Below, piece after piece: positions 8,271 through 30,843 of a stretch of DNA of 32,000 nucleotides. The notes below the pieces were generated by a model that was not told the DNA's origin, did no database searches, and was given only the letters and a program-made list of their open reading frames with translations. The stretch is from Sulfobacillus acidophilus DSM 10332 (GTDB taxonomy: Bacteria > Bacillota > Sulfobacillia > Sulfobacillales > Sulfobacillaceae). The translations under genes were made by a program, and so were the position numbers. Location of the stretch: contig CP003179.1 in assembly GCA_000237975.1 (NCBI GenBank), positions 2,354,270 through 2,386,269 of the forward strand. The letters are read 5' to 3'. How positions within the stretch are numbered: position 1 is the stretch's first letter; each line of letters begins with the position of its first letter.

Positions 8271-8287
8271 CGACGAAGGAGAACGGT

Positions 8288-9490: not shown

Positions 9491-10970
9491 CCTGCCGCCG
9501 CACCACTTTAGCCGCCGGGCCCATGGGTAGCTCCGGTACCAATTCGATGCGAAACGGCCTTTTATAGTCGGCGAGCCGGTCCCGGCACAGCGCATACAGC
9601 TCATCGACGGAGAGAGCGTCGGTTTTCGGCACCACCAACCCCAGCACCCGCTCTCCCCGTCGCGGGTCGGGTATGCCCACGACACACGCCAATTGAACCC
9701 CGGGATAACTCAATAACACGTTTTCCACTTCGGTCGGATAGACATTTTCCCCGGCCACAATGATCATGTCTTGCTTACGGTCCACGAGATACAGCATGCC
9801 CTCTTCACTGAGATACCCCATATCTCCGACGGTCAGAAAACCGTCCGGGGTGAATACGTGACGCGTCGCATCGGGTTTTTTCCAGTATTCCGTCATGAGC
9901 GAGGGCCCCCGGACAAAAACTTCCCCAATCTGACCCGGCGGCAACGCGTGACCCTCCTCGTCCAAAATCCGTATCTCTAGTCCGAGCGCCGGAAAGCCCA
10001 CCGATCCCAGCGCGCCGCCAATCGCATGCCGCATCAGCGTCACCGCCCCGTATTCGGTGGACCCGTAGACGTCATAGAGTTCAACCCGGGGAAATCCCCG
10101 CAAAATCCGATCGCGAAGCGTCGAATCAAGCGGTGCGGACGAGGTCATCATGACCCGTAGCGAATGCGGGTCGATTTTTCCGGCCTCTACCGCATCAGCC
10201 AAAAAGGTTAAAAGGCTCGGCACAAACATACTGTAGGTGACCTGGTGCCGATTCATCTCGTCGATGACATGCTGAGGATGAAACGTCCGATGCGGGTAAA
10301 TGACACAGGTGGCCCCAATGGCCATAGACAAGGTCACAAACCACATCGAGTTGACGTGAAACATCGGTAAAAGGGCGAATCCCACGTCTTGATGGCTGAT
10401 CCCCAGCTCCGACGCCAAGGTCAACGCAATAATCAAATTGGAAAAATGAGAACGTACGGCCCCTTTCGGACGCCCGGTGGTCCCCGACGTATAGACAATC
10501 ACCCACGGATCCCCCTCACGGCTGACCAGGGATACCGGTGCCGTGTCCATTGCCCCGACCAGCCGATCCCACGAGCGCTCGTGGGTTGAAGTCCCGGTGT
10601 AGTATACCGGAATCGACAACCCGGCTTGGTCAATCAGGGGCGCTAATTCCTGATCGGCCAATAACAGGGAAACTTCCGCATCCTGAAGCGCATAAGCGAT
10701 TTCGGCCGGCGCCCACCGCAAATTTAAGGGAACGCCGACGACCCCGGCTTTCGCCAAACCAAAATAGGCTTCGGCCATCGTGAGCCCGTTCGGCAACAAC
10801 AACGCCACGCGATCGCCCGGCTCGACCCCGAGGGACCGAAAGGCCCGGGCCATTTGATTGGCCCGTTCGTTCAAGGACCGATAGGTGAGAGTCTGTTCGC
10901 CAAAAACCAGCGCCACCTTGTCCCGATGGCGCCGCGCGGAGTTTTCCAATGCCTCTGCCACAGTTAACAC
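9447..10970 (-). CDS. AMP-dependent acyl-CoA synthetase/ligase (ANL superfamily)
   Basis: The AMP-binding motif YTSGTTGRPKGA is present, along with downstream YGSTE and GDMGY..DRKQDMII motifs. GTG start 10970 has GAAGGAG 9 nt upstream. Confidence 0.85.
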   Translation of the reverse strand: MLTVAEALENSARRHRDKVALVFGEQTLTYRSLNERANQMARAFRSLGVEPGDRVALLLPNGLTMAEAYFGLAKAGVVGVPLNLRWAPAEIAYALQDAEVSLLLADQELAPLIDQAGLSIPVYYTGTSTHERSWDRLVGAMDTAPVSLVSREGDPWVIVYTSGTTGRPKGAVRSHFSNLIIALTLASELGISHQDVGFALLPMFHVNSMWFVTLSMAIGATCVIYPHRTFHPQHVIDEMNRHQVTYSMFVPSLLTFLADAVEAGKIDPHSLRVMMTSSAPLDSTLRDRILRGFPRVELYDVYGSTEYGAVTLMRHAIGGALGSVGFPALGLEIRILDEEGHALPPGQIGEVFVRGPSLMTEYWKKPDATRHVFTPDGFLTVGDMGYLSEEGMLYLVDRKQDMIIVAGENVYPTEVENVLLSYPGVQLACVVGIPDPRRGERVLGLVVPKTDALSVDELYALCRDRLADYKRPFRIELVPELPMGPAAKVVRRQAKEAWLAQHPDGTY

Positions 10971-18005: not shown

Positions 18006-18089
18006 AACCCCATCATACCGCCTTTTCGTCGACGGACCGGTGCTCGCATAATCTTCTGAACAGGGAAGCCGCCATATGACGTCATTCAA

Positions 18090-18172
18090 CTTTTTTATTT
18101 TTAGGTATTGACAGACTAGTGTGATCTCTGAGACATTTAAAATGTAGTAATCCTATACGGTCACTCATCTAT
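18090..18172. promoter_or_regulatory. AT-rich divergent control region between the MFS gene and the sulfur-relay operon
   Basis: The most AT-rich stretch I noticed in the window. It holds a consensus TTGACA at 18108..18113 with no well-spaced -10. TGTGA-N6-AGACA lies at 18120..18135. A perfect inverted repeat ACATTT-a-AAATGT lies at 18133..18145. Confidence 0.4.
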
Positions 18173-19564
18173 GTGGGGGCGTTGGATATCATGGGCCTCG
18201 CCTATTGGATCAACGCCGCACCCCTATCCTTAGTCAGCGGATGGAGTTTTCTCGCCGCATTCAACCAACAGGAAAGACAGCACGGATATCCTTGGTGGAC
18301 ACGATCTGGACGATGGGCAGGCTGGAGTTTGCCTCTCATCGGGCTTTGGTGGATCGTGTGGGGTCTGCGGCACCCGATCCTGCTAACCGGAACAGCCAGG
18401 GCGGACCTCGCCGTTTTGTGGTTCGGCGAATTAAGCCTCGTCGGGTTGCGGAGGCCAGGCCGGTTCTCGGCCCTGTTCGCCGGAATCGTCGGTTTCCTGG
18501 CGCTTTTCGGTTTGAATCATCTGATGGCCCAGGGACTGTTGGCCCATCCCCTTCCCCTCAAGGGGGCTCCGAGCTATCCGATTCACGGATGGCCGACGGC
18601 CCTCTGGTTGACCGGCTGTGAAGCATCTGCCGCCGTCGCCGGCTTGAGTCTGGGAAGCCGGGCGGGGACAGAACAGCAGCTGGTGCGAGGTCTCCTCGCG
18701 CTGACGGGTACTGTCATCACGGGATTTTTCTTTACGAAATCCCTTATGGGCCCTTATTTACCGGCGTGGGCCAATTTAATGGACGGCTCCAGCCGCCACT
18801 GGTGGTATTGGATGGCCGACGGGGTCATGGGCTTATTTTGCTTCACCGGGCTACGGTTTTGGGCCCGGGGCCCCGGCGGTCGCGTCGCCGCCCTCGTCAC
18901 GAGCGCCGTACTCGTCGTCGGGCTGGTTTTGTTGGTCCATTGGGCAACCCGTGCCATGGTACCCGATTTTGCCACCCAAATGGGGCAGGCCGCCCTCCTG
19001 TTTGGCGTCCTCGGCGCCGTTATCGGCATCCTCGGGTCGGCGAATAGCCTTTGGCAAGCCGAACGGTTGCTGTTGGTAGGGGTGTCGGGTCTCTGGAGTA
19101 TCGCCTTAACGGGTGCTTTTCAGTCGTTGGCGATGAAAAACCATTGGGTGCCGCGACCGCCCATATCTCAGGTGCCGGCGACGACGGCGGCCGAGATTCA
19201 AGCCGGTCGGGAATTAGCCCAAAACCTGGGCTGTTATACCTGCCATGGGGTGAACGGCACCCAGGACCGCCCCAATCCGGGGGATCCCGGCCAATGGGTA
19301 TGGGCGTGGAATTCGGCGCCCTTTCACCATGTATTTGGCGGGCCTTCCGGTCGACAAAAACTCTGGACCTTATTGTGGAACGGTCAGTACGCGTACCGGA
19401 TGACATTTTACCCCTATCAACACAACTGGTCCGTCGCGTACGACACCATCGACAACCACTACAACGTCCCCGCGTGGAATGGCATTGTGACCGCTCAACA
19501 AATGCAGTGGCTGGTGAGTTATATCCAAAGTCTATCGGTCTCGCCGACCGGGAAAGGAAGGTAA
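18173..19564 (+). CDS. polytopic membrane protein fused to a C-terminal mono-haem c-type cytochrome domain
   Basis: About 10 hydrophobic helices over about 330 aa, followed by a soluble domain with haem motif CYTCH (19232..19246). The C-terminus is cytochrome-c-like (QQMQWLVSYIQSL). The start may be ATG 18191 instead of GTG 18173. Confidence 0.7.
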   Translation: MGALDIMGLAYWINAAPLSLVSGWSFLAAFNQQERQHGYPWWTRSGRWAGWSLPLIGLWWIVWGLRHPILLTGTARADLAVLWFGELSLVGLRRPGRFSALFAGIVGFLALFGLNHLMAQGLLAHPLPLKGAPSYPIHGWPTALWLTGCEASAAVAGLSLGSRAGTEQQLVRGLLALTGTVITGFFFTKSLMGPYLPAWANLMDGSSRHWWYWMADGVMGLFCFTGLRFWARGPGGRVAALVTSAVLVVGLVLLVHWATRAMVPDFATQMGQAALLFGVLGAVIGILGSANSLWQAERLLLVGVSGLWSIALTGAFQSLAMKNHWVPRPPISQVPATTAAEIQAGRELAQNLGCYTCHGVNGTQDRPNPGDPGQWVWAWNSAPFHHVFGGPSGRQKLWTLLWNGQYAYRMTFYPYQHNWSVAYDTIDNHYNVPAWNGIVTAQQMQWLVSYIQSLSVSPTGKGR

Positions 19565-19568
19565 CCGC

Positions 19569-19943
19569 GTGGCCCATCTGGTTGTGATGACCACCGACGC
19601 ACCCGAAAAGTGGGCGGATGCCGGCGAATTCGTCGTCCACTTCATCCTCGCCGCCCTTGCCGAAGGACATCGCGTCGACCTCTTGAGTGCCGGCGACGCG
19701 GTCCAAAGCCTCAGGCTTTCATCGCCGTGGTCCGATTTGGCCGTCGGTCGGCCAGACGGATTATTCCGCTGGCATGCCTGCGGGCATGCGTGTCATACCT
19801 CCGGTATCGCCGCCCCGGATTTGCCGCCGACCGCCGTGCTATCCAGCACCACCCAATTCGGTCAGCTCATGCGACAGGCCGACTGTACCGTCATTTTGGA
19901 ACCGGGGAGGATGGCGTCATGGACAACCGCATCGGGGTCGTGA
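19569..19943 (+). CDS. dsrE: DsrE/TusD-like sulfur-relay protein
   Basis: GTG 19569 lies 7 nt after GGAAAGGAAGG and 4 nt after the preceding stop. The DsrE-family N-terminus is HLVVMTTDAPEKW...ALAEGHRVDLL. A candidate active-site region is WHACGHACHTSGI. Confidence 0.65.
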   Translation: MAHLVVMTTDAPEKWADAGEFVVHFILAALAEGHRVDLLSAGDAVQSLRLSSPWSDLAVGRPDGLFRWHACGHACHTSGIAAPDLPPTAVLSSTTQFGQLMRQADCTVILEPGRMASWTTASGS

Positions 19944-20224
19944 TTCAACGCCCGCCGGACGATCGGCTGGCCGAACTCCTGCGCATCACCTTGGGCCTTT
20001 ATACCGCGGACGTGTTGGCCGGCGTCGTGGTTTGGGGACACGGTTGCGCAGTGTTTCAAGACGACCAAAACCCGGCGGCCCGGCAAATCTGCCGCTATTT
20101 GGAGGAACTGGTCGAGTGCGACGTGCCCGTGTATCAGACCGAAGGCTCCGGCCCGCTCGCGTCGATCAGCCCCCGAAAGGCCGCCGAGTGGCTGAAAGAC
20201 ATCCGCTGGGTCATTGTCCATTAA
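19919..20224 (+). CDS. dsrF: DsrF/TusC-like sulfur-relay protein
   Basis: ATG 19919 follows GGGGAGGA and overlaps the dsrE-like gene by 25 nt. The translation MDNRIGVVIQRPPDDRLAELLRITLGLYTADV..VVVWGHGCAVF fits the DsrE/F fold pattern. The upstream part of track ORF 19610..20224 is a GC artefact. Confidence 0.6.
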   Translation: MDNRIGVVIQRPPDDRLAELLRITLGLYTADVLAGVVVWGHGCAVFQDDQNPAARQICRYLEELVECDVPVYQTEGSGPLASISPRKAAEWLKDIRWVIVH

Positions 20225-20256
20225 ATGTCCCTAAAGGTAAAGGAGGCAGAGTTCAT

Positions 20257-20541
20257 ATGACCACGATTTTGGCTAGCCAGTGGGAGTCGCTGTTACCGGT
20301 GTTGGAACAGATCGTGGCCACCGAATCACATCACTCGGTCAACGTCATCTTGTATGGCGCCGCCTTATCCGCACCTGACCAGGCGTTGGCGGATTGGTCG
20401 CCGGACGGACTCTCGTCCGTGACCTTTTATTGCCCGCCGACGGGGTCGACATCCCGGCCCGATTTCGCGGTGACGGCGAGTTACCCAGAATTGGTGGCCT
20501 TGACCGTCAGCGCCGATCGCGTGATTTCCGTAACCGCTTAA
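20257..20541 (+). CDS. dsrH: DsrH/TusB-like sulfur-relay protein
   Basis: ATG 20257 follows AAAGGAGG. The 94-aa product has a layout like TusB: VNVILYGAAL, VTFYC, and YPELVALTVSADRVISV at the C-terminus. Confidence 0.6.
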   Translation: MTTILASQWESLLPVLEQIVATESHHSVNVILYGAALSAPDQALADWSPDGLSSVTFYCPPTGSTSRPDFAVTASYPELVALTVSADRVISVTA

Positions 20542-20571
20542 ATTCGAGAGAAAAGATTGGAGGGATGTTTC

Positions 20572-20835
20572 ATGCATGACGCTTCAACCCCTGTTCAAAA
20601 CTTGGCCCCTGACGAAGTGTTTGACGTCCGGGGCGAAACCTGCCCGTTTCCGGCGATGTATAGCCAACGGAAATTAAAAAAACTGCCGGCCGGCCGCGTC
20701 ATCGAAATACTCATTGACCATCCGCCCGCGGCGGAAGAAACCGTACCCGGCATCTGCGCCGAGAAAAACTGGCCCTACCATTCCGTCAAAGAAGACGGGT
20801 ATTGGCGGATTAAAGTGTTTAAAACCCATCCGTAA
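20572..20835 (+). CDS. tusA: TusA-family sulfurtransferase
   Basis: ATG 20572 lies 7 nt after GGAGGG. The diagnostic motif DVRGETCPFP (CPxP with the active Cys) is present. The size of about 87 aa fits the family. Confidence 0.85.
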   Translation: MHDASTPVQNLAPDEVFDVRGETCPFPAMYSQRKLKKLPAGRVIEILIDHPPAAEETVPGICAEKNWPYHSVKEDGYWRIKVFKTHP

Positions 20836-20853
20836 TCGAGAGGAGCACACTCC

Positions 20854-22113
20854 ATGACGATATTGGCCAATTTGCCGGCCATCACGCCCGGCTGGGTGTT
20901 GATCGGACTTTTCGTCCTGTTAGGTATTGGCTTTGGCATAATCCTGGAGCGAAGCCGCTTTTGCTTCACCACGGCTTTTCAAGAAACCATGGAATTTCGT
21001 AATCCGTGGATTTTACAAGCCGTCTTTCTCTGGATGGGCTTGTCGGCTTTGGTCGTTTCGGGCCTGACCGAATGGGGCGGCGTCCAGCCGCAATTGTTTA
21101 ATCAAGGGTGGTACACCGTGTTCGGCGGCTTTTTGTTCGGGACCGGCATGAGCATGTGTGGGGCGTGTGCCTCGGGTCAACTCTTCCGAGCCGGCTCCGG
21201 CTACGTCGCCAACTGGATGGAATTCATCGGAGCCGGATTCGGCGGCATCTTGTTCGCCCTCTGGTTCTACCCGGCCGTAGAACAGCGCGCGCTCGCGCAT
21301 TCGCAACCGCTGTCGTTACCGGCGACCCTCCACGTGCCGCCCATCGTCTGGGGGCTGGGCAGTGCCGTGTTATTTTTGGGTCTGGCGTGGCGCCTTCACC
21401 GGCGGGTTCCCCAACGGCGATCGGCCTCTTATCAGGAAAAAACCTTTCGCTTGTCGCTTCGGCATCCCTGGAATCCCTTAGCCGGCGCGATTTTGTTAAC
21501 CGTGTTATCCACCCTCTACCTCGTCCTTTCCTCCGGCACGTCCATGAGCATCAATACCCCCAACACGTTGACGATTGCCTGGTTAGTCAATTGGGTGACC
21601 AAACCGTTAGGGTACAATTTGGCCACGCACGGTTTTTTCGTGGAAGCCGACTATCACCATCACATTTATTCCCGGCTCTCCCCGCTGGCGCTAAACCAGA
21701 TATATGAACCGCATTTTGGCCATCATTTGGGCGATCTCGCCCTCGGCGTCTGGCTTTTCATCCCGCTTACGATTGTGGGGGCCTTCTTATCGTCCCGCAT
21801 CGCCGGGGAATTTAAATGGCGGATCCCCCAAAAGCGCAGCAAACTGCTCTGGTATTTAATTGGCGGGGTCATTATGGGCTTTGGCGCAGCCACCGCGCTG
21901 GGCTGCAATATCGGCGCCTGGACCGAAAGTTTCGCTGCCCGCTTTGACTTGTCCGGGCTCCTCTTCACCGTCGGCATGTTTCCCGGCGTCTGGTTCGGCA
22001 CCCGGCTGGATGAATGGGTGGCGGATCGGTTGTGGGGATTTGACCAACCGACCCCGGTCCTCCGTCCCCGACCCCGAGAAGCGATGCCCGCCCAAGCGGT
22101 CGAAGACCGTTAA
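20854..22113 (+). CDS. yeeE: YeeE/YedE-family sulfur-compound (thiosulfate-type) transporter
   Basis: Polytopic protein with the three family Cys-containing segments (ERSRFCFTTAF, MSMCGACASGQLF, ALGCNIGAW). It lies directly downstream of tusA, as in known YeeE/YeeD-type pairs. Confidence 0.8.
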   Translation: MTILANLPAITPGWVLIGLFVLLGIGFGIILERSRFCFTTAFQETMEFRNPWILQAVFLWMGLSALVVSGLTEWGGVQPQLFNQGWYTVFGGFLFGTGMSMCGACASGQLFRAGSGYVANWMEFIGAGFGGILFALWFYPAVEQRALAHSQPLSLPATLHVPPIVWGLGSAVLFLGLAWRLHRRVPQRRSASYQEKTFRLSLRHPWNPLAGAILLTVLSTLYLVLSSGTSMSINTPNTLTIAWLVNWVTKPLGYNLATHGFFVEADYHHHIYSRLSPLALNQIYEPHFGHHLGDLALGVWLFIPLTIVGAFLSSRIAGEFKWRIPQKRSKLLWYLIGGVIMGFGAATALGCNIGAWTESFAARFDLSGLLFTVGMFPGVWFGTRLDEWVADRLWGFDQPTPVLRPRPREAMPAQAVEDR

Positions 22114-22141
22114 GCATTCCACCCCAAGAGGAGGGTTTCCC

Positions 22142-22324
22142 ATGTCTGAGCTATGGACCGAACACCGGTCAGCACTCTGGTCCCTGTTTGTAGCCATCTT
22201 GTTATTGGCCGTTTTCATGGCCAAACCGCCGGTCAACGCCAGTACCGCCCCCACGACCCATCCGGCCCACAGCACGCCCGGTAAGGCAAGCACTCCCACC
22301 ATGGGTGTCGGCTGTGGCGGATAG
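22142..22324 (+). CDS. 60-aa membrane-anchored peptide with a Pro/Thr/Ser-rich linker and C-terminal GVGCGG
   Basis: ATG 22142 lies 6 nt after GAGGAGGG. One TM helix (ALWSLFVAILLLAVFMA) is present. The single Cys is third from the C-terminus. The ORF is embedded in a longer artefactual track ORF (21860..22324). Confidence 0.5.
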   Translation: MSELWTEHRSALWSLFVAILLLAVFMAKPPVNASTAPTTHPAHSTPGKASTPTMGVGCGG

Positions 22325-22350
22325 ATCTTTTAGAGAGGACGATTAATCGC

Positions 22351-23517
22351 ATGCGAGTTCCTGTACGGCTATCGGCCGTCGCCACCATCTTAGCCAGCCT
22401 GGCGGCCGGATGTGGCCAAACAACCACTCCGACAGCCACGACCGAACCGGCCGTGCATCCGGCACCGCCGTCCGACGGCTATGTCTTTGTCATGAACACC
22501 GGTTCGGACACGATTTCCGTGATCGACCCGAAAACCAATACGGTCATCAAAACCCTCAATGCCCAGGGCATGACCCTGTCCCCGTACCCGTCGGACCAAT
22601 ATGCCCCCGGATCGGGTTATGTTCTCTCGGGCTGGAAAAATACCTTATCCATTTTGAAGGTATCCGGCACGTCGGTTTCTCTGGTGAAAAACATCCCCTT
22701 ACCGACGAGTGTAACCACCAAAAACGGGACGCCGGTTCCCCAAACGGGCGTGTGGGGTGACATCACGCCGAGTGGCACCGGGGTTGTCGCGGTGCGCGAA
22801 GCCGAGAAATATCTCTTTTTGAACATGAATCCCCACAGCAAGACCTTTGGCCAAGTCGAATATTCCATTGATACGGCCCAGTTAGGTCCCCACGGGACCG
22901 GCATCGGGCCCTGAGACGTCTCCTTCTCCCCCGGTGGGGGACTTTGCTTTGTACCCTGTATCTACAGCAATCAGATTCAAGTGTTAAATGTGGCAAAACA
23001 CGAGGTGGTTTCGACGATCGCCAGCGCCGTGCCCAAACCGACCATGGATACCGTGTCGTGGAACGGTAAATATCTCATTGTGGAGGATACGGCCAATCTG
23101 GCCAATCAAGTCACCATCTATTCCTTGACCAACCCGGAAACGCCGGTCGCGCTAGCTACTTTGACGGCGGGCGTCGCTCCCAACACCGATCAAGTGGCTC
23201 CCAACAACCAATATACGTTTGAAATCTCGTCGGGTAACCCGAAAGCGCACATCAACGGGTCCGTCGAAGTCATTCAATTGTCGGACCATCCCTCCGTCAT
23301 CAAAACGATTGCCTTACCCGGATCCGGCGATACCGTGGGCACCTTTTCTCCGAACGGCCAGTACCTTTATGTCAATGTCCCCTCAATCAACAAGGTGGCG
23401 GTCATCTCGGTGTCGTCACAAAAGTTGGTCGACATGATATCCGTGGGCCAAGACCCGGGCGGACTCTTTACCAGTCATTACGATTGGGTTACGCGGCCAC
23501 CCGCCACGTCGAGTTAG
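22351..23517 (+). CDS. YVTN-type beta-propeller lipoprotein, one gene interrupted by an in-frame TGA at 22912..22914 (Sec/recoding candidate or pseudogene)
   Basis: Lipobox LAAGC and YVTN-like repeats (YVFVMNTGSDTISVIDPKTNTVIKTL; VGTFSPNGQYLYVNVPSINKVAVISV). Track ORFs 22351..22914 and 22981..23517 are in the same frame. The 66 nt between them encode a repeat-consistent DVSFSPGGGLCFVPCIYSNQIQVLNV. There is no SD before 22981. Confidence 0.7.
22912..22941 (+). other. in-frame UGA plus downstream GC hairpin (candidate SECIS-like/recoding element)
   Basis: UGA is followed 12 nt later by the hairpin UCCCCC-GGU-GGGGGA (22927..22941). The loop GGU occupies nt 22-24 counted from the U of UGA. Confidence 0.35.
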
Positions 23518-23528
23518 GGGGTGACGTC

Positions 23529-23615
23529 ATGACCCCTTTGATCGATGTAGCTCTCGGTGTCCTCGGTGCCGGATTGGTCATTTGGCAACTGCTCCTGAAA
23601 GACGTATTAAAATAG
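23529..23615 (+). CDS. 28-aa hydrophobic peptide (MTPLIDVALGVLGAGLVIWQLLLKDVLK)
   Basis: ATG 23529 lies 5 nt after GGGGGTG and 11 nt after the propeller stop. The stop is 3 nt before the terminator hairpin. Not in the ORF track because it is too short. Confidence 0.35.
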   Translation: MTPLIDVALGVLGAGLVIWQLLLKDVLK

Positions 23616-23618
23616 GCG

Positions 23619-23652
23619 AAAGGCCAGGTCTTCTTCGAGAAGGCCTGGCCTT
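23619..23652. terminator. bidirectional terminator hairpin between the sulfur operon and codY
   Basis: AAGGCCAGGTCTTC-TTCGA-GAAGGCCTGGCCTT forms a stem of about 14 bp. It sits between convergent genes ending at 23615 (+) and 23672 (-). Confidence 0.7.
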
Positions 23653-23671: not shown

Positions 23672-24454
23672 TTACCGTTGCAACTTCTTGAGTTCCCCTA
23701 ACAACCGGTCGTTTAAGACCCGAATGTGGGTGCCTTTCATCCCGAGCGAACGGGACTCGATCACGCCGGCCGACTCAAATTTGCGTAGCGCGTTCACAAT
23801 CACCGACCGGGTAATGCCTACGCGATCCGCGACCTTGGACGCGACCAGGAGTCCTTCCGGTCCGCCAAGCTCTTCGAAAATGTGCTGAACCGCTTCCAGT
23901 TCCGAATAGGATAGGGTGTCGATAGCCACTTTCACGGCCGCTTTCTTCCGTGCTTCCATTTCCAGCTCATCGGATTTCGAGCGCAGGATCTCCATCGCCA
24001 CGACGGTCGCACCATACTCGGCCAAAATCAGGTCTTCATCGGTAAACTCCCGCCCAAACCGGGAAATGACCAATGTTCCCAAGCGATCGCCACCGCCGTT
24101 GACCGGCACGATGGTCGTCAATTTGTTTTCATAAAGACAAGGCTTATCATGGAAGAAGACACACTGCCGGGCTTGCTGCGACACATTCGGCAATGTCTCA
24201 TCCACCTTAAGAAGCCCTTGGTTATAGTTGGCGGGAAATACTTCCGGTTCAAGGACTTCACGCACCATGATGTTGCATTCGAATGAGTCCAGCAAAGAGT
24301 ACCCTAAAATCTTTCCACGCCGACTAACCACATACACGTTGGCCTGAATCAGTTCCCCTAAAATCTTGGCCATTTCCTCAAAGTTGACCGGATGACCGGC
24401 CGACCGCTGTAATAGGCGGTTAATCCGGCGCGTCTTGTCCAGCAACTGTTCCAC
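23672..24454 (-). CDS. codY: GTP/BCAA-sensing global transcriptional regulator CodY
   Basis: 260 aa with [16 protein letters not shown], a GAF-like N-domain and a C-terminal wHTH ([38 protein letters not shown]). GTG start lies 7 nt after GAGGAGGA. Position after hslU fits the conserved synteny. Confidence 0.95.
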
Positions 24455-24499
24455 GACAAATTCCTCCTCATATCGACGTAAAACCGCGATTTCACCCCC

Positions 24500-24528
24500 A
24501 GTATACCACGAAAATGGGATAAAGTGAT
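24500..24528 (-). promoter_or_regulatory. possible internal promoter for codY (extended -10)
   Basis: The minus strand reads TGgTATACT (-10 at 24505..24500, TG at 24508..24507). A weak -35, ATCACT, lies 17 nt upstream at 24528..24523. Confidence 0.4.
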
Positions 24529-24543
24529 AACGACAAAAAAAAT

Positions 24544-25947
24544 TCAGAGTATATACCTATTGATGTCAACGTTGTCCGCAATCCGACTCAAACGTTCATC
24601 GACATAGGCCGCCGTAATCGGGATGGTTTGGCCCGAGAGCTCCGGTGCGCTAAAACTCAACTCTTCCAGCACTTTTTCGATAATCGTGTGCAATCGTCGA
24701 GCCCCGATATTTTCGGTATCCCGATTCACCCGATAGGCATAGCGTGCCATGGCCCGTAAGGCGGCGTCATCGAACGTGACTTGCACCCCTTCGGCCGCCA
24801 ATAACGCTTGATATTGAAAAACCAACGAGTGACGCGGTTCGGTCAAAATTCGATAAAAATCGTCTTCGGTCAGGGCGTCGAATTCCACCCGAATGGGAAA
24901 CCGGCCTTGCAATTCGGGAATCAAGTCACTCGGCTTTGCCACATGAAAGGCGCCGGCGGCAATAAAAAGAATATGATCGGTCTTCACCGGGCCATACTTG
25001 GTTTGCACCGTGGACCCTTCCACAATCGGCAGAATGTCCCGTTGTACGCCTTCCCGCGAAACGTCCGGGCCATGCGCCGATTGGCTAGAGGAGGCAATTT
25101 TGTCGAACTCGTCGATAAAGATGATCCCTTGCTGTTCCGCGCGCCACACCGCTTCCGCATTCACGGATTCGGTGTCGATCAATTTGTCGGCTTCCTCTTG
25201 GGTAAGGACTTTCCGCGCTTCGGCCACCGTCATTTTTCGCCGTTTGGTGCGCTTGGGCAATATCCCCTGCAGCATCTCACCGAGGTTTAATTGATTTTCC
25301 ATCCCCGGCATGTTCCCCCCCATCATCGGCAAGGGGGCGACATCTTCGACTTCCACTTCAATTGTCTCGTGCTCCATCGCCCGCATACGGAGTTTCTCTC
25401 GGATTTTCCGCCGCTCATCCTCAATGCGACGCCGCTCCTCAGGATCTACCGGGCGCGAGGACGCAGTCGGCGTTCCGCCACCGAAAAACATTTCGAACGG
25501 GTTTCGAACCGGGCCGGTATCTTCCGGCAACGGAGCCAACGCATCCACAATCCGATCTTCGGCTAACCGCTCGGCTCGATCTTTCACCTTTTGGCTCCGC
25601 TCTTCTTTGACCATCCGCACGCTGACTTCGACCAAGTCGCGCACCATGGCGTCCACATCCCGCCCGACGTACCCCACTTCGGTGAATTTAGTGGCTTCCA
25701 CTTTAACAAACGGCACCTTTAACAAGCGAGCCAGCCGTCGGGCCACTTCCGTTTTTCCGACACCGGTCGGCCCAATCATGAGGATATTTTTCGGGGTAAT
25801 TTCTTCTTGCAACTCGGGATCCAGTCTGCTCCGGCGCCACCGGTGACGAAGAGCAATCGCGACCGCCCGCTTCGCCTCTTTTTGACCCACAATATATCGG
25901 TCGAGTTCCTCAACTATCCGCGCCGGCGTCATCAATGCCTCATCCAT
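24544..25947 (-). CDS. hslU: ATP-dependent protease ATPase subunit HslU (ClpY)
   Basis: [17 protein letters not shown], Walker [10 protein letters not shown] and [10 protein letters not shown] are present, plus the I-domain insertion. 467 aa. Confidence 0.95.
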
Positions 25948-25965
25948 GGAATTCCCCGTCCTCTC

Positions 25966-26505
25966 TTAACCTAACCGTTCAATGGTTAAATGATGGTTGG
26001 TATATACGCAAATATCCGCCGCAATATCCAACGAACGCCGAACAATATCTTCCAACGGGAGTCCCGTGTCCACCGACACCAGGGCACGGGCTGCCGCAAG
26101 CGCATAGCTACCGCCCGACCCGACGGCGGCAATACCGTCGTCCGGCTCGATGACTTCGCCGGTACCGGACAATAAAAAGACATTGTGCCGATCCAATACC
26201 ACCAAGAGCGCTTCGAGCTTCCCTAACATCCGGTCGGTGCGCCATTCCCGCGAAAGGGCCACCGCCGCCCGCGACAAATTGCCGTGGCTTTCTTCCAGTT
26301 TACCTTCAAACCGCTCAAACAACGTCAAGGCGTCCGCCACCGCGCCGGCAAATCCCGCCAACACCTCCCCGTGATACAGCCGGCGGACTTTTTTGGCCGT
26401 ATGTTTCATGACCGTATTTTGGCCGAACGTCACTTGTCCGTCTCCGCCAATCACCGCCTGGCCTTGGCGTACCATGGCCAAAATAGTTGTTCCGTGAAAT
26501 TCCAT
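25966..26505 (-). CDS. hslV: ATP-dependent protease peptidase subunit HslV (ClpQ)
   Basis: [12 protein letters not shown] gives the N-terminal Thr nucleophile context, and GDGQVT and [11 protein letters not shown] are present. ATG 26505 follows AAGGAGAGGGA. The longer track start (26556) would overlap xerC and lacks an SD. Confidence 0.9.
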
Positions 26506-26530
26506 GCTCCCTCTCCTTCGCTCTCCGCCA

Positions 26531-27418
26531 TCACGCGCGGGGGTGAGTGTGCTCATAGATGCGCCCGAGTTCCTCTTGGGAAATATGGGTATAGATCTGG
26601 GTGGTCCGAAGCGATCTATGGCCCAGCAACTCTTGCACCGCCCGTAAATCCGCCCCGTTCATCAATAAATGGGTGGCAAAAGAGTGCCGTAGCCAATGCG
26701 GGCTAATATTGCGGCGGACGGCACCGACCACCAACGCCGCTTTCACAATTCGCCGGACACTGCGAGTCGTCAACCGGCCACCCCGGGCATTTAAGAAAAC
26801 CGCCGTCGTCGACGAACGGGCCGCGAGCGTCGAGCGCGCCCCTTCGACGTATTCCTGGAGGGCGGCCATGGCCGGTCGGCCCAACAACACCGTGCGATAT
26901 TTTCGGCCTTTGCCTTTGACGGTTAATTCGCCGGTGGCCCAATGAATCGCGTCGAGATCCAAATCGACCGCCTCCTGGCTTCGTAACCCGCCGCCATATA
27001 TGACTTCTAATAAGGCGCGGTTTCGCACGCCCAACGGGGTCCGGTTTGACACCAAGCCGTCTAATAATTGGCTCATCTCGTCCACTGTGAGCACCCGGGG
27101 CAGGCCCGGACGATATCGGGGAGCCAAAACCCGGCGCGCCGGATTATCTTGCCGCCATCCCTCTCGTTCTAAATACCGATAAAAGGTGCGAATGACCGCC
27201 AATTTCCGGGCGACGGAGCGCGGTGAAAGGCCCCGCGCCCCCAAGGCCGCCAAATAGCGGTAAACGTCGCCCGTACCGACTTGGTCCAATTCCCCGGCCG
27301 CCCGCCAAAAGGCGACTAAATCACTGTGGTAGGCGCGTACCGTATGTTCGGACGCCTGCTCGACCGCGCTCAGATACCGGCAAAACCCGTCAATCCAGGT
27401 TTCACTGAGATTGGACAT
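26531..27418 (-). CDS. xerC: tyrosine recombinase XerC (CodV)
   Basis: Phage-integrase fold with R...[12 protein letters not shown]...LGH...TQIYTH catalytic residues. It has the conserved position between trmFO and hslV. Confidence 0.9.
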
Positions 27419-28757
27419 GGTGCGCCTCCGGTTCGACGCTAAGCGACTCTGCGATGGGAGTCATGACGGCGAGTGATCGCGCCTTAAGGCGTTCCCGCCG
27501 CTCCTTTTTGTCCTTGACGGCACGAATCTCCTCGGGAACCTCAAATAAGCCGAAGGTGGCATTCATCGGTTGGAAGGTGTCGGGATCGGCATGCGTGACA
27601 TAATAGAATAAGGCGCCCATCATGGTCTCCCGCGGTAGCACCACCGGATCGAGACCTTTTACGTAACGGGCCGCGTTAATGCCGGCTAAAATCCCCGAGG
27701 CGGCCGACTCGACGTAGCCTTCCACCCCAATCATTTGTCCGGCCAACCAAAGATCGGCCCGCTTTCGCGTATTGAGGCTCGGTTCGAGTATTTTCGGCGA
27801 TTTGAGATAGGTGTTCCGGTGCATCACCCCGTAACGGGCAAATTCCGCCTGCCGGAGCGCCGGGATCATCGACAGAATGCGTTTTTGCTCTCCCCAGCGC
27901 AAATTGGTTTGAAATCCGACCAGACTCCACAAAGACCCCGCCGCGTTGTCCCGTCGCAATTGGACCACCGCGTACGGTCGACGCCCGCCTTCGAGAGGGT
28001 TCTTCAGCCCAATCGGCTTCATGGGTCCAAATAAAAGGGTTTTGGGACCTCGGCGGGCAATCTCTTCGATGGGCAGGCACCCTTCAAAAAATCGGGCCTC
28101 TTCAAAATCATGCCGTTCATGTTGCTCGGCCGCCATCAAACTTTCATAAAAAGCTTCATATTCCGCCTTCGTCAACGGGCAATTAATATAATCGTCCGTC
28201 CCTTCCCGCGACCCATAAAACGCATAGTTCATATCAATACTGTCCCCAAAGACGATGGGGGCCGCCGCATCAAAAAACGACAAGGCATCGGTGGCAAAAA
28301 AATCCTGCAGGGCTAAACTCAAGGCTTCATGGGTCAAGGGGCCGGTGGCGATCACGGTCGGTCCTTCCGGAATCGTCTCCACCACGTCCCGGTGCACCGT
28401 AATACCCGGATGCCCCAAAATGGCCTCGGTTACGGCCTCGCTAAATATGTCCCGGTCCACCGCCAAAGCCGAACCCGCATCCACCCGGGCTTTTTCGGCC
28501 GCCTGTAGAATCAAGGAAGAAAAAAGCCGCATTTCGGCTTTGAGCGTGGCAGCCGGCGAGGTCCCCTGATCACCGCCTAACGAATTGGAACACACCAATT
28601 CGGCCAACCGATCGGTAATATGCGCGGGGGTTTTGACCAGAGGTCGCATTTCGTAGAGATCGACCGGAATGCCGCGTTGCGCAATTTGCCAAGCCGCTTC
28701 CGATCCCGCCAAACCGCCCCCCACGACGATAACCCGGTTATTGGGCTTGTTCCTCAT
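27402..28757 (-). CDS. trmFO: methylenetetrahydrofolate--tRNA-(uracil-5)-methyltransferase TrmFO (Gid)
   Basis: FAD motif VIVVGGGLAGSEAAW, 451 aa, TrmFO-type core. ATG 28757 lies 7 nt after AAGGAGGGG. It overlaps topA by 20 nt and xerC by 17 nt. Confidence 0.9.
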   Translation of the reverse strand: MRNKPNNRVIVVGGGLAGSEAAWQIAQRGIPVDLYEMRPLVKTPAHITDRLAELVCSNSLGGDQGTSPAATLKAEMRLFSSLILQAAEKARVDAGSALAVDRDIFSEAVTEAILGHPGITVHRDVVETIPEGPTVIATGPLTHEALSLALQDFFATDALSFFDAAAPIVFGDSIDMNYAFYGSREGTDDYINCPLTKAEYEAFYESLMAAEQHERHDFEEARFFEGCLPIEEIARRGPKTLLFGPMKPIGLKNPLEGGRRPYAVVQLRRDNAAGSLWSLVGFQTNLRWGEQKRILSMIPALRQAEFARYGVMHRNTYLKSPKILEPSLNTRKRADLWLAGQMIGVEGYVESAASGILAGINAARYVKGLDPVVLPRETMMGALFYYVTHADPDTFQPMNATFGLFEVPEEIRAVKDKKERRERLKARSLAVMTPIAESLSVEPEAHHVQSQ

Positions 28758-30843
28758 AGCCGCACCCCTCCTTTAGACAGGTCAACGTCTCTTGCCGTCC
28801 TTTTTTTCGGAGCGCCATCGACGATCCGCAGCGCGGACACGTCTTTTCGGTCGGCCGGAGCCACGTCACGAAATCGCAGGCGGGATACGAGTGGCATCCG
28901 TAAAATGTCCGGCCCTTCCGCGTGCGCCGGACCACCAGCTGGTCGCCGCACTTGGGACAGACCGCTCCCGTTTTCTCGACGAACGGTTTGGTGGCGGTAC
29001 ATTCGGGATAGCCGCTACAGGCCAAAAACTTGCCGAACCGCCCGTATTTAACCACCATCGGGCGCCCACACTGATCACACACCTCATCCGTTTCTTCCAC
29101 CGGGATCGCCACTTTCTCCAAATCCTGCTCAGCCTTGGCCAACTCCTCGGCAAAAGGACGATAGAAATCGGTCAGGACCTCCCGCCACCCGAGCTCCGCC
29201 GATTCCACCCGATCCAGTTGGTTTTCCACGTTGGCGGTAAAGCTGATGTCGACGATTTCAGGAAAATATTTCTGAAGGAGCTCCACCACCAACCGTCCCA
29301 GCGGAGTCGGGATCAGCCGTTTTTGCTCCCGCTGGACATATTCGCGTTGTAGCAAAGTGTCGATAATCGGGGCGTAAGTCGACGGACGCCCAATCCCCAG
29401 TTCTTCCAACGTCTTAACCAGACTGGCTTCCGTAAACCGCGGCGGCGGTTCCGTAAAATGCTGCTCGGCTTCGACCGCAGTGGCCGTCAGTGTCTGGCCT
29501 TCCTGCACCACCGGCAGCGGTCCTTGTCCGGCATCGTCCTCGTTGGCGGCTTTCGTATCGTCGGCTGCCGACTCTTGATAGAGGACCGTGAAACCGGCAA
29601 ACTTCACCACGGCACCATGCGCCCGAAAACGATCCTCACCGACCGATAATTCGACGGTCGTCGCGTCATACACCAGGGGAGCCATTTGGCTGGCCACAAA
29701 GCGCTCCCAAATCAGGCGATATAGGCGCAACTGATCCCGGGTTAGGCTCGCTTTCAGCCGATCAGGATGCCGCATTACAGACGTTGGCCGAATCGCCTCG
29801 TGCGCCCCTTGCACCCCGGGTCGCTCCTTTTCGGGCCTTTTAGCGGCACCCAGTCCCTTCCAATAGGCCGTCCCATATTGGGATTCGATAAATTGGCGGG
29901 CTTCGGCTTCCGCCACATCGGCTACCCGCGTCGAGTCCGTTCGAATATAGGTGACTAACCCGACGGTCCCTTCCCCCTGAACATCAAGTCCTTCGTAAAG
30001 CTGCTGGGCGATGCTCATCGTCCGCTTGACCGAAAATCCCAATCGACGAGAAGCCTCTTGCTGCAAAGTCGAGGTGGTAAACGGCAGCGCCGGAAATCGC
30101 CGCCGCTCGCGCGTTTTAACCGATTCGACGTGCACCGTCTGGCCTTTTTTGACCCGTCCGACGACGGTTTGGGCATCCACCGGACTGAGTCGGCCTTTTT
30201 CGCCTAAAGGGCCGGCGTATTGCGCCGTCATGACCGGTTGGGTATCGAGCGTCAGCGTGACCGTATAGTATTCTTCCGGCTGGAAGGCCTGAATTTGGTC
30301 CTCGCGGTCCACCAAAAGCCGTAACGCGGCCGACTGCACCCGACCGGCGGAAAGGCCCGGGCGCACCTTGCGCCATAATAAGGGCGAGAGCTGATACCCG
30401 ACGACACGATCAAGCACTCGACGTGCTTGTTGCGCATCGACTAAATGCATATCGATGGGCCGTGCATGGCGGATGGCCTCCGTCACCGCATCCTTGGTAA
30501 TCTCATGAAATTCGATGCGCCGAGCTTCCGCTAAAGGAATCCCCAGCGATTCGGCCAAATGCCAGGAAATGGCTTCCCCTTCGCGGTCGGGGTCCGTCGC
30601 CAAATAAACCCGGTCGGTTTTTTTGGCGGCGTCTTTAAGTTCCTTTAATAACGGACCTTTTCCGCGAATCGTAATATAACGGGGTTCGAACCCGCGTTCT
30701 AAATCCACCCCAAATTGACTTTTGGGCAGATCCCGCACATGGCCCATGGAGGCCTTCACTTGATAGCGACTTCCTAGAAACCGGCTAATGGTCTTCGCTT
30801 TGGCCGGCGACTCCACTATAATCAGCGGCTTTGGCTTGGGCAC
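28738..30843 (-). CDS. topA: DNA topoisomerase I
   Basis: Toprim N-terminus LIIVESPAKAKTI, active-site region YIRTDS, and C-terminal Cys4 zinc-ribbon repeats (CDQCGRPM..C..C; CPKCG..C..C; CPRCG). GTG 30843 follows GGGAGGTG. Confidence 0.95.
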   Translation of the reverse strand: MPKPKPLIIVESPAKAKTISRFLGSRYQVKASMGHVRDLPKSQFGVDLERGFEPRYITIRGKGPLLKELKDAAKKTDRVYLATDPDREGEAISWHLAESLGIPLAEARRIEFHEITKDAVTEAIRHARPIDMHLVDAQQARRVLDRVVGYQLSPLLWRKVRPGLSAGRVQSAALRLLVDREDQIQAFQPEEYYTVTLTLDTQPVMTAQYAGPLGEKGRLSPVDAQTVVGRVKKGQTVHVESVKTRERRRFPALPFTTSTLQQEASRRLGFSVKRTMSIAQQLYEGLDVQGEGTVGLVTYIRTDSTRVADVAEAEARQFIESQYGTAYWKGLGAAKRPEKERPGVQGAHEAIRPTSVMRHPDRLKASLTRDQLRLYRLIWERFVASQMAPLVYDATTVELSVGEDRFRAHGAVVKFAGFTVLYQESAADDTKAANEDDAGQGPLPVVQEGQTLTATAVEAEQHFTEPPPRFTEASLVKTLEELGIGRPSTYAPIIDTLLQREYVQREQKRLIPTPLGRLVVELLQKYFPEIVDISFTANVENQLDRVESAELGWREVLTDFYRPFAEELAKAEQDLEKVAIPVEETDEVCDQCGRPMVVKYGRFGKFLACSGYPECTATKPFVEKTGAVCPKCGDQLVVRRTRKGRTFYGCHSYPACDFVTWLRPTEKTCPRCGSSMALRKKGRQETLTCLKEGCGYEEQAQ

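Follow-up and report, generated by a model that had tools for sequence, protein, structure and literature searches.

A beta-propeller lipoprotein gene with an in-frame UGA, predicted to encode a selenoprotein, in a putative sulfur-trafficking operon of Sulfobacillus acidophilus

The locus

The acidophilic bacterium Sulfobacillus acidophilus DSM 10332 carries, within a 32,000-nucleotide stretch of its genome (contig CP003179.1, positions 2,354,270 to 2,386,269; hereafter the window, numbered from its first letter), a compact unit of nine open reading frames (ORFs) that joins genes for relatives of cytoplasmic sulfur-relay proteins to genes for three extracytoplasmic proteins, one of which is a beta-propeller lipoprotein whose gene is interrupted by a UGA that very probably encodes selenocysteine (Sec). 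All nine ORFs lie on the forward strand. The first (ORF1, TPY_1258; 18173-19564) encodes a polytopic membrane protein that ends in a monohaem cytochrome c domain, and its most likely start is the ATG at 18191, to judge from a homologue, 96% identical, whose first residue corresponds to residue 7 of ORF1. It is followed after 4 nt by the DsrE/TusD-like ORF2 (TPY_1257; 19569-19943), which overlaps by 25 nt the DsrF/TusC-like ORF3 (TPY_1256; 19919-20224), and after a further gap of 32 nt by the DsrH/TusB-like ORF4 (TPY_1255; 20257-20541). A TusA-family sulfur carrier gene (TPY_1254; 20572-20835) lies 30 nt beyond, then, after 18 nt, the gene of a YeeE/YedE-family membrane channel (TPY_1253; 20854-22113), after 28 nt that of a 60-residue membrane-tethered peptide (22142-22324), after 26 nt the propeller lipoprotein gene, taken through its in-frame TGA (TPY_1252 and TPY_1251; 22351-23517), and after 11 nt a hydrophobic ORF of 28 residues (23529-23615). 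A first-pass annotation of this DNA had described nine co-directional ORFs, and the count, the shared direction and all eight junction lengths proved correct. The matching region of the S. acidophilus TPY genome lies at about 1.165-1.186 Mb of CP002901.1, where the unit bears the locus tags TPY_1258 to TPY_1251 and the two small ORFs, for the peptide and the 28-residue product, have no call.

The propeller gene and its in-frame UGA

Read through the UGA, the propeller gene encodes a 388-residue lipoprotein whose lipobox is LAAGC, and the UGA, at 22912-22914, occupies the position of residue 188. The propeller lipoprotein that had been recognized in the first reading of the DNA stands, but the gene is not the uninterrupted ORF it was then taken to be. 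Gene calling splits it into products of 187 and 178 residues in every assembly that covers the gene (L001-L004). The read-through protein scores 42.3 against the NCBIfam YVTN repeat model TIGR02276, for which the cut-off is 27.85, and an AlphaFold 2 (AF2) model of its orthologue P0001, with a mean predicted local distance difference test (pLDDT) of 80, has strands consistent with approximately seven four-stranded blades; the top match of this model in the PDB is 1l0q (Foldseek E 1.5e-19, TM score 0.68).

Two full-length homologues, P0001 and P0002, span the stop at 33% identity and 97% coverage, and both have a cysteine exactly at the TGA column. In total, more than 20 homologues from Actinobacteria and archaea have cysteine there without exception. 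The 17 Cys-type sequences of the alignment (P0001, P0002, P0097, P0100, P0105 and P0108, the actinobacterial L008, L009 and L011-L015, and four haloarchaeal proteins) all have it, as do 19 clusters of full-length proteins (E below 1e-160) wherever the column is aligned. The four haloarchaeal homologues, which are more distant, keep a C-D ... P-D motif invariant. Five of the actinobacterial Cys-type genes came from a scan of species-representative genomes, as did a metagenome-assembled genome of the Bacillota (L010, 59-66% identity) that has TGA, and two further TGA loci, L017 and L022, were reached through homologues of the cytochrome fusion; no relative was found when metagenome contigs were scanned with a propeller profile. 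TGA is thus found at the same column in S. acidophilus, L010, L017 and L022, four Bacillota lineages whose proteins share 42-63% amino acid identity.

The sequence beyond the UGA is under purifying selection. Two S. acidophilus strains differ at 7 of the 1167 nt of the gene and both keep the TGA, and neither further stops nor frameshifts were found in the gene. After the UGA, nonsynonymous differences per site (pN, 0.27-0.43) are set against synonymous differences (pS) of 0.42-0.78, and this part is as conserved as the part before it; between L010 and L017 the ratio of nonsynonymous to synonymous substitution rates (dN/dS) is approximately 0.31 after the TGA and 0.20 before, synonymous sites being saturated in the other pairs. 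In cells grown on Fe(II), transcript levels of the two halves are near equal, at 82.6 reads per kilobase per million mapped reads (RPKM) for TPY_1252 and 88.5 for TPY_1251.

A second residue distinguishes the two forms of the family. Fifteen residues past the Sec column, all four Sec forms have a cysteine, in the motif [FY]VPC (FVPC in S. acidophilus), whereas every Cys form has an aspartate there (IPD). Because a P-G-G-G turn lies midway between the two positions, Sec and the +15 cysteine would face each other on adjacent antiparallel strands, a register that on its own suggests that they may form a selenenylsulfide couple. According to the literature the host uses Sec: S. acidophilus TPY is listed as a Sec user with seven known selenoproteins (PMC5029168, Table S2), and Sec-containing formate dehydrogenases have been reported for every Sulfobacillus genome (PMC4378227). 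We predict with high confidence that residue 188 of the propeller is incorporated as Sec. The first-pass annotation had seen the only cysteines of the exported proteins as carrier sites, a view that does not hold for the propeller, whose reactive residue is read here as a UGA-encoded Sec and not as Cys.

The lipid-anchored propeller appears to represent a selenoprotein family that we could not find described, with a prior listing in BSepDB being possible. No paper was found that joins the terms selenoprotein and YVTN, and a 2026 review of prokaryotic selenoproteomes, the deep-Sep paper and the main text of BSepDB mention neither a propeller or lipoprotein selenoprotein nor Sulfobacillus.

The propellers are found in varied surroundings. 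In L010 (8900-12430) the gene of the Sec-propeller is preceded by an ArsR-type regulator with C-terminal cysteines and followed by a paralogous propeller gene with Ala at the Sec column, and an FdhE-like CxxC protein is encoded on the opposite strand. The haloarchaeal propellers P0110-P0113 combine a twin-arginine signal and a lipobox-like sequence with a C-terminal C-x-G-x-C-x-C-G-H tail, and in L024/L025 the haloarchaeal propeller gene adjoins molybdenum-cofactor genes (MobB-MoaE, MoeA).

A SECIS-like hairpin after the UGA

All four TGA genes can form a G+C-rich hairpin of 6-7 bp that begins 11-13 nt after the UGA, has its apical triloop at +21 to +22 and resembles a selenocysteine insertion sequence (SECIS). 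In S. acidophilus this hairpin, UCCCCC-GGU-GGGGGA, occupies 22927-22941 of the forward strand and starts 12 nt after the UGA; its counterparts are GAGUCCC-GGA-GGGACUC in L010, GUCCCC-GGG-GGGGAC in L017 and GGCCCC-GGU-GGGGCC in L022. Across the alignment of TGA genes 91.7% of the cells pair, and three of the six pairs are compensatory (U-A, A-U and G-C; C-G and G-C; C-G and U-A), so that the paired positions covary although the encoded amino acids differ. Shifting the partner column by one lowers the pairing to 66.7%, and in seven Cys genes the same columns pair in only 42.9% of cells, with 0 compensatory changes. With four sequences only, a shuffle test of the hairpin is modest in outcome, 28 of 500 shuffles reaching the same score. 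The L010 hairpin is more stable than its shuffled counterparts (z -3.6).

Related clusters

The expectation that this gene order would be conserved is borne out by four other loci in the Bacillota (L017/18, L019/20, L021 and L022), here termed type A, in which the order is cytochrome fusion, DsrE, DsrE, DsrH, TusA, YeeE and small peptide, with or without the propeller. The same components in another order, type B, are found at eight actinobacterial loci (for example L007, 6976-12872; also L008, L009 and L011-L015). In type B the YeeE protein is split between two genes and TusA is fused to the second half, which is good evidence for direct handover from the channel to TusA. These clusters also encode a peptide ending in GGC, a Cys-type propeller and three small proteins, the middle one of which is homologous to ORF3, and in the place of the cytochrome they have a CcdA/DsbD-like membrane protein together with a cytoplasmic thioredoxin-like protein. 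The CcdA-like protein has the motifs PCTLP and GCPCP as well as an extracytoplasmic tail that is large and conserved, the thioredoxin-like protein has a CxxC motif and no signal, and the final transmembrane protein of the cluster shows weak SAF-like similarity and conserves a C-terminal Cys.

In two type-A clusters, L019 (7200-7984) and L021 (5356-5940), an exported rhodanese lipoprotein with the active-site loop CYTGQW is encoded directly upstream of the cytochrome fusion, and in L021 the propeller gene is absent. Together these arrangements suggest that the outer step is a transfer of sulfane sulfur.

Type-A clusters have other neighbours as well. Upstream of the cluster in L017 (78-2759) lie genes for a CopA-like P-type ATPase and for an HMA chaperone, and downstream of that in L022 (10016-11197) lies one for an ArsP permease. 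Such metal and metalloid genes are not conserved among the related clusters and may be there by coincidence. In L022, two more genes follow the Sec-propeller (8941-9914), for a Cys-rich protein of 211 residues and for a protein of 111 residues (MGCDQCC ... VDHVISL) that, to judge from its sequence, looks DsrE-like.

The carrier, the channel and the DsrEFH-like trio

The assignments of TusA and YeeE made in the first-pass annotation are confirmed by Pfam. The TusA-like protein, with the motif RGETCPFP and hence the Cys-Pro-x-Pro signature, matches Pfam TusA (PF01206) at 53.3 bits against a cut-off of 28.6 (E 2.5e-14) and is 68-77% identical to its orthologues; it falls under the cut-offs of the NCBIfam YedF, TusA and TsuB models, of which YedF is the best match (E 1.1e-8, 34.6 of the 79 required). 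The channel, with the Cys motifs RFCF, CGAC and LGCN, matches Pfam Sulf_transp at 170.6 bits (E 7.8e-50) and is 46-68% identical to its orthologues, and it too stays under all NCBIfam equivalog cut-offs, reaching 115 of 350 for YedE/FdhT (E 3.6e-33) and 107 of 400 and 72 of 645 for TsuA. The gene named tusA in the published transcriptome paper, TPY_1113, was considered as the tusA of the unit and set aside, being a different gene at 1.039 Mb.

The three small ORFs upstream of tusA are more divergent. ORF2 scores 19.0 bits against Pfam DsrE (E 1.6e-3), under the cut-off of 22.7, and ORF3 and ORF4 have no match in Pfam or NCBIfam. Searches of all three against PDB sequences (phmmer, single-sequence and profile searches) returned nothing relevant, and comparison by hhalign with single E. 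coli TusB, TusC and TusD sequences returned nothing, so the link to DsrE, DsrF and DsrH is seen only through profiles of orthologues. The positional orthologues in L017, L019 and L021 all exceed the Pfam cut-offs, with 47-54 bits for DsrE (PF02635), 32-36 bits for the second DsrE (PF02635) and 38-49 bits for DsrH (PF04077). When aligned by hhalign, ORF2 matches its own positional profile with a probability of 97.5% (E 9e-12), ORF3 the type-A F profile with 96.3% (E 2e-9) and ORF4 the profile of DsrH-positive orthologues with 67.9% (E 4.9e-5 over 81 columns), each of them matching its cognate profile and no other. Among the E. coli proteins, TusB matches the H profile at 94%, TusC the F profile at 68% and TusD the E profile at 20%.

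Direct comparison by BLASTP gives E values of 2e-9 to 3e-8 for ORF2 with its L017, L021 and L019 orthologues, and of 0.01 for ORF4 with the L017 H protein. ORF3 also matches an actinobacterial family of 31 sequences (hhalign 96.2%), and its AF2 model (pLDDT 85) has a beta-alpha-beta sandwich fold whose best full-length Foldseek matches are 2fb6 and 3pnx ('putative sulfurtransferase DsrE'), with weak E values of 0.018-0.031. The cysteine of ORF2 (WHAC), at the active-site position that binds sulfur, aligns with the single conserved cysteine of the type-A and type-B E proteins. The first-pass reading of ORF2 to ORF4 as a DsrEFH-like trio is accepted on these profile and orthologue matches, with ORF4 the weakest of the three assignments and the ORFs themselves below Pfam significance.

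The membrane cytochrome and the tethered peptide

The cytochrome c domain proposed for ORF1 is supported by a match of residues 343-455 to Pfam Cytochrom_C (PF00034) at 28.8 bits, above the cut-off of 21.3. Only five clusters of full-length ORF1 homologues were found by an exhaustive HMMER search of 1.84 billion representatives. The haem motif is CYTCH, and in the five homologues both CxxCH and the block PNPGDP...GQYAYR...VPAW are invariant. The haem domain is strongly conserved and the membrane domain poorly so; the latter has no conserved His or Cys, and so nothing in it points to haem b or to a thiol relay. A relationship between this membrane domain and the CcdA-like protein of the type-B clusters was considered and rejected (hhalign 1.5%).

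The peptide consists of one hydrophobic helix, a linker rich in Pro, Thr, Ser and Ala, and the C-terminal sequence VGCGG. Its gene is uncalled on the TPY record (L001) and called in L002-L006, with a 60-residue product in the Logan assemblies L002-L005. The VGCGG end is common to the counterparts in L017, L021 and L019; in L017 and L021 the gene stands directly after YeeE, and in L019 the equivalent lies upstream of the cytochrome fusion. The L019 carrier is itself a lipoprotein (lipobox LAAC), which argues that the tail of the peptide lies outside the cell. Ahead of that lipoprotein gene in L019 come two others, one of the ArsR-type HTH_5 kind and one for DrsE_2.

Seven actinobacterial counterparts of the peptide end in GGC. 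The 60-residue peptide has no match in Pfam or NCBIfam, hence no SoxY domain, and no SoxZ gene is present. The cysteine of the C-terminal GGCGG of SoxY carries sulfur intermediates (PMC6067878), and the VGCGG of the peptide and the GGC of its actinobacterial counterparts resemble this ending without being identical to it. By analogy, the peptide may work in the manner of the SoxY arm, although it is not a member of the SoxY family.

Expression on iron and on sulfur

A published RNA-seq comparison of strain TPY grown on FeSO4 and on elemental sulfur (PMC5114278, supplementary file 3) covers the eight annotated genes of the unit. From S0 to Fe(II), RPKM values rise from 4.0 to 224.4 for TPY_1258 (log2 5.81), from 13.5 to 175.5 for TPY_1257 (log2 3.70), from 24.3 to 109.1 for TPY_1256 (log2 2.16), from 2.4 to 105.0 for TPY_1255 (log2 5.47), from 1.9 to 47.1 for TPY_1254 (log2 4.62), from 1.9 to 55.4 for TPY_1253 (log2 4.88), from 3.6 to 82.6 for TPY_1252 (log2 4.52) and from 9.1 to 88.5 for TPY_1251 (log2 3.28). 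All eight are therefore 4- to 56-fold higher on Fe(II), and the flanking genes TPY_1249, TPY_1250, TPY_1259 and TPY_1260 are outside the differential list. Because the eight genes shift together and their flanks are unlisted, the unit appears to be a single regulatory unit with the boundaries that had been drawn for it in the first-pass annotation.

The same data bear on the function of the unit. The cysteine-synthesis genes cysK (log2 4.12) and cysI are likewise higher on Fe(II), and sor, soeABC and the rhodanese gene rhd TPY_2911 rise on S0, opposite to the unit (PMC5114278). Expression was expected to depend on the sulfur source, and it does, Fe(II) exceeding S0. This direction argues against the earlier proposal of a self-contained capture route with an electron outlet, when that is taken as a route for extracellular S0, since the unit is lower on S0, is induced together with cysK and cysI, and is without a sulfur-oxidizing enzyme. 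From this pattern we infer that the unit supplies reduced sulfur when none is present in bulk, rather than serving as the main route of S0 oxidation.

Boundaries and neighbouring genes

An AT-rich intergenic region, 18090-18172 (no strand assigned), precedes ORF1 and is presumed to hold the promoter and operator of the operon. The AT-rich control region noted in the first reading is real, with a GC content of 0.375-0.39 at 18060-18179 against approximately 0.58 in the flanks, but position 18090, from which the unit had been counted, is not itself an ORF start. A promoter scan found no match to the sigma-70 consensus in the upstream region, and 18090-18172 holds two short palindromes only.

At the other end, a 14-bp hairpin with one G-U pair, in which 23620-23633 pairs with 23639-23652 (no strand assigned), stands between the operon and the convergent codY. 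Described earlier as a bidirectional terminator 3 nt beyond the unit, it is present as a 14-bp stem 4 nt past the last stop codon but was not flagged by a terminator scan: there is no U-run on the forward strand at 23620-23652, a T-run lies on the codY side, and the consensus scan gave no canonical intrinsic terminator. The last stop codon is that of the ninth ORF, 23529-23615, which has the Shine-Dalgarno sequence AGGGGGTGA upstream, rated good, no match in Pfam or NCBIfam, and no counterpart in the related loci. As a gene it is doubtful, since it is unsupported by conservation despite the good Shine-Dalgarno sequence.

The operon abuts a conserved block on the opposite strand, codY-hslU-hslV-xerC-trmFO-topA (23672-30843), and looks like an insertion between this codY-topA block and a gene for a transporter of the major facilitator superfamily. 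Approximately 9 kb upstream, two tandem overlapping genes (7113-8270 and 8267-9490) encode pyridoxal phosphate-dependent enzymes of Cys and Met metabolism (PF01053, 453 and 431 bits), which may belong to the same sulfur-amino-acid neighbourhood. Among the window ORFs scanned there is no Pfam match to DsrC/TusE, Hdr, Sox or rhodanese, in agreement with the first-pass annotation, and no selD, selA or selB gene lies near the operon.

Discussion

The analysis shows a gene set that is conserved and co-regulated, the families to which its products belong, the Sec/Cys column and a covarying hairpin. On this basis we propose that this one operon encodes an envelope-spanning pathway for sulfur trafficking and acquisition, a reading to which we give about even odds. 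The pathway would be divided by the membrane, with the lipid-anchored Sec-propeller, the tethered and disordered VGCGG peptide and the external monohaem cytochrome c domain of the polytopic protein outside, YeeE spanning the membrane, and TusA and the DsrE/F/H-type trio in the cytoplasm. The conditional elements of the scheme are the substrate, the direction of flow, what the cytochrome does and the side of the membrane on which the peptide tail lies. The propeller selenolate would attack an external sulfur compound (a polythionate, thiosulfate or polysulfide), a mobilizing step that in some relatives might instead fall to the rhodanese. Sulfane sulfur would then move onto the peptide cysteine and be presented to YeeE, and TusA would receive it inside and supply the DsrEFH-like complex, from which the cell would draw it. 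The cytochrome could reset the redox state of the Sec-Cys pair or of the peptide, a task that in the actinobacterial version might be taken by the CcdA-like and thioredoxin-like proteins.

The choice of Sec may be related to habitat. The pKa of Sec is much lower than that of Cys, and because this would keep the selenolate nucleophilic, Sec would be preferred at an external pH of approximately 2. On this argument, Sec and the cysteine found only in the Sec forms would replace the Cys and Asp of relatives from neutral habitats since a thiol fails as a nucleophile at pH of about 2, and the propeller, with the SoxY-tail-like peptide and the membrane cytochrome, would be a minimal and undescribed extracytoplasmic sulfur-carrier system that feeds YeeE, TusA and DsrEFH. 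We advance this extended proposal tentatively, as somewhat less probable than not.

A number of observations weigh against these proposals. In folding energy the hairpin of S. acidophilus itself does not surpass shuffled sequence (z +1.27 over 70 nt and -0.30 over 40 nt), and the argument for a SECIS-like element therefore relies on the comparative evidence; a search of 22700-23200 against Rfam found no SECIS family. The Sec-propeller of L010 has no YeeE, TusA or DsrEFH genes nearby, and no sulfur genes neighbour the haloarchaeal propellers (L023 and L024 included), whose contexts are unrelated. ORF4 is DsrH-like with a probability of only 68%. In class I cytochromes a motif of the M-P-A type usually carries the distal Met ligand, and the ORF1 family lacks this ligand, VPAW taking the place of the motif in all five homologues without a conserved Met close by. 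The equivalence of a high-potential cytochrome c with the CcdA-thioredoxin pair is uncertain, the two normally moving electrons in opposite directions. The RNA-seq comparison has one biological replicate, with harvests at 24 h and 3 days, and expression of the hdr cluster is likewise greater on Fe(II) in these data (PMC5114278), so that the expression pattern separates assimilation from dissimilation poorly. A pathway of sulfate assimilation is predicted for S. acidophilus (PMC4378227), and as sulfate is abundant in both media, the need to scavenge reduced sulfur is itself questionable.

Several other explanations were considered. That the propeller is a pseudogene, its TGA a plain nonsense mutation that leaves a truncated lipoprotein of 187 residues or nothing at all, might be suggested by the split calls made by every gene caller, by the use of TGA as a normal stop codon elsewhere in the operon and by the unexceptional thermodynamics of the S. 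acidophilus hairpin. Recurrence of the TGA in four such divergent lineages, each time on the invariant cysteine of the family, is hard to reconcile with decay, as are the lack of other lesions, a pN well under pS on both sides of the codon, compensatory changes in a hairpin that the Cys genes lack, the strict covariation of the +15 cysteine with Sec and the equal mRNA levels across the TGA, and we regard this explanation as very improbable. The pathway could alternatively serve selenium acquisition of the YedE/YedF type, supplying the selenoproteins of a host that uses Sec. YedF and YedE/FdhT are indeed the best NCBIfam matches of the TusA-like protein (E 1.1e-8) and the channel (E 3.6e-33), and YedE-like proteins have been tied to selenium transport (PMC11582611), but these scores, 34.6 of 79 and 115 of 350, lie far under the cut-offs, the actinobacterial clusters of the same architecture use Cys, both the rhodanese and the DsrE/F/H trios are proteins of sulfur relay, and selD, selA and selB are missing from the vicinity, all of which make a selenium function improbable.

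Two further alternatives concern the function of the unit. Along the lines first proposed, it would be a self-contained dissimilatory route in which S0 or polythionates are captured, imported and relayed, the electrons leaving through the cytochrome for energy. The list of components fits this, TusA and DsrE-type relays feed sHdr sulfur oxidation elsewhere (PMC11094781, PMC11582611), and with the hdr cluster of TPY also high on Fe(II), low expression on S0 does not mark assimilatory genes alone; against it are set the levels of 2-24 RPKM on S0 versus 47-224 on Fe(II), the opposite behaviour of the genuinely S0-induced sor, soeABC and rhd TPY_2911, and the lack of an oxidizing enzyme in the unit or window and of an adjoining DsrC, TusE or Hdr gene, so that a dissimilatory role is unlikely while still deserving consideration. 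A role in thiol/selenol redox defence of the envelope, against oxidants, reactive sulfur or thiophilic metals in Fe(III)-rich acid, would have the cytochrome, or CcdA with thioredoxin, recycle the outer proteins while YeeE, TusA and DsrEFH disposed of the product. Induction on Fe(II), where Fe(III) builds up, alongside the peroxiredoxin TPY_2300 (log2 5.78), the CcdA-like and thioredoxin-like proteins of type B, the ArsR-type (L010, L019), CopA/CopZ-like (L017) and ArsP (L022) neighbours of relatives, and the statement that most known selenoproteins are redox enzymes (PMC13188914) would all suit such a role. The metal and regulator neighbours vary from locus to locus, however, the rhodanese alternative seen in L019 and L021 belongs to the sulfur transferases, and a YeeE importer with fused TusA and a DsrEFH relay points to inward delivery of sulfur, and defence is accordingly judged quite unlikely. 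Trafficking and acquisition of sulfur across the envelope is thus the reading we retain.

Were the proposal correct, it would add to the selenoproteins a family unusual both in its fold and in its location, namely a lipid-anchored beta-propeller that is exported. It would also offer a natural comparison between Sec with Cys in acidophilic Bacillota and Cys with Asp in Actinobacteria and haloarchaea, one that bears on why cells pay for selenocysteine. Even for the best-studied system, the way in which externally bound sulfur gets to YeeE-type channels and TusA is described as not yet understood (PMC11582611), and here a candidate outer enzyme, carrier tail, channel and cytoplasmic relay would be found in one small operon of a cultivable host into which plasmids have already been introduced by conjugation. 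In the TPY gene calls the propeller appears as two hypothetical proteins that lack a Pfam match and the peptide gene does not appear, with the consequence that models of sulfur metabolism in this bioleaching organism omit the system.

Comparison with known systems

The cytoplasmic core of the unit is of a known kind, and its outer module of Sec-propeller, carrier-tail peptide and membrane-cytochrome fusion is one that we did not find described. The closest parallel is that of Hyphomicrobium denitrificans, in which sulfur bound to SoxY passes through the YeeE-like SoxT to TusA and on to DsrE3C and sHdr (PMC11582611). As in that SoxYZ-SoxT-TusA system, the S. acidophilus unit has a carrier cysteine in a Gly-rich external C-terminal tail, a channel of the YeeE family, and in the cytoplasm TusA followed by transferases of the DsrE family. 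Unlike it, the unit has no SoxY or SoxZ fold and no SoxXAB, having instead a tethered peptide of 60 residues in a Gram-positive envelope; it adds the Sec-propeller and the membrane-cytochrome fusion, is without an adjoining Hdr, and is repressed on S0.

The pairing of a Sulf_transp channel with an adjoining TusA-like partner, and the three conserved Cys motifs of the channel, are shared with the thiosulfate uptake proteins TsuA/YeeE and TsuB/YeeD of E. coli and Spirochaeta thermophila (PMC11073785), as is induction together with genes of cysteine synthesis. The S. acidophilus channel is nevertheless no TsuA by score (72-107 bits against cut-offs of 400-645) or by length (419 residues against approximately 330-350), and, unlike E. 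coli TsuA/TsuB, the unit adds the DsrEFH trio and three extracytoplasmic proteins. Similarly, the trio resembles DsrEFH of Allochromatium vinosum, TusBCD of E. coli and the type II DsrEFH (PMC13293266) in its three tandem paralogues of the DsrE fold, its cysteine in the E/D subunit and its adjoining TusA, but differs from DsrEFH and TusBCD in being too divergent for Pfam and in having no DsrC, TusE, DsrAB or MnmA nearby.

For the propeller, the features expected of bacterial selenoproteins such as FdhA and those of BSepDB and deep-Sep (PMC13326102, PMC12013277) are present, namely an in-frame UGA where a redox-active or nucleophilic Cys would stand, Cys homologues, TGA orthologues, and a downstream stem-loop with a G-rich apical loop. 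It differs from the catalogued selenoproteins in its YVTN beta-propeller fold and in its predicted place, lipid-anchored on the outside of an extreme acidophile, neither of which appears in the selenoproteome papers searched. With the YncE/YVTN propellers, including the archaeal S-layer protein 1l0q, it shares the YVTN repeat signature and the overall propeller fold, and what sets the S. acidophilus subfamily apart from generic YVTN proteins is an invariant motif, G-x-[C/U]-D ... P-[D/C], with which one of the blades begins.

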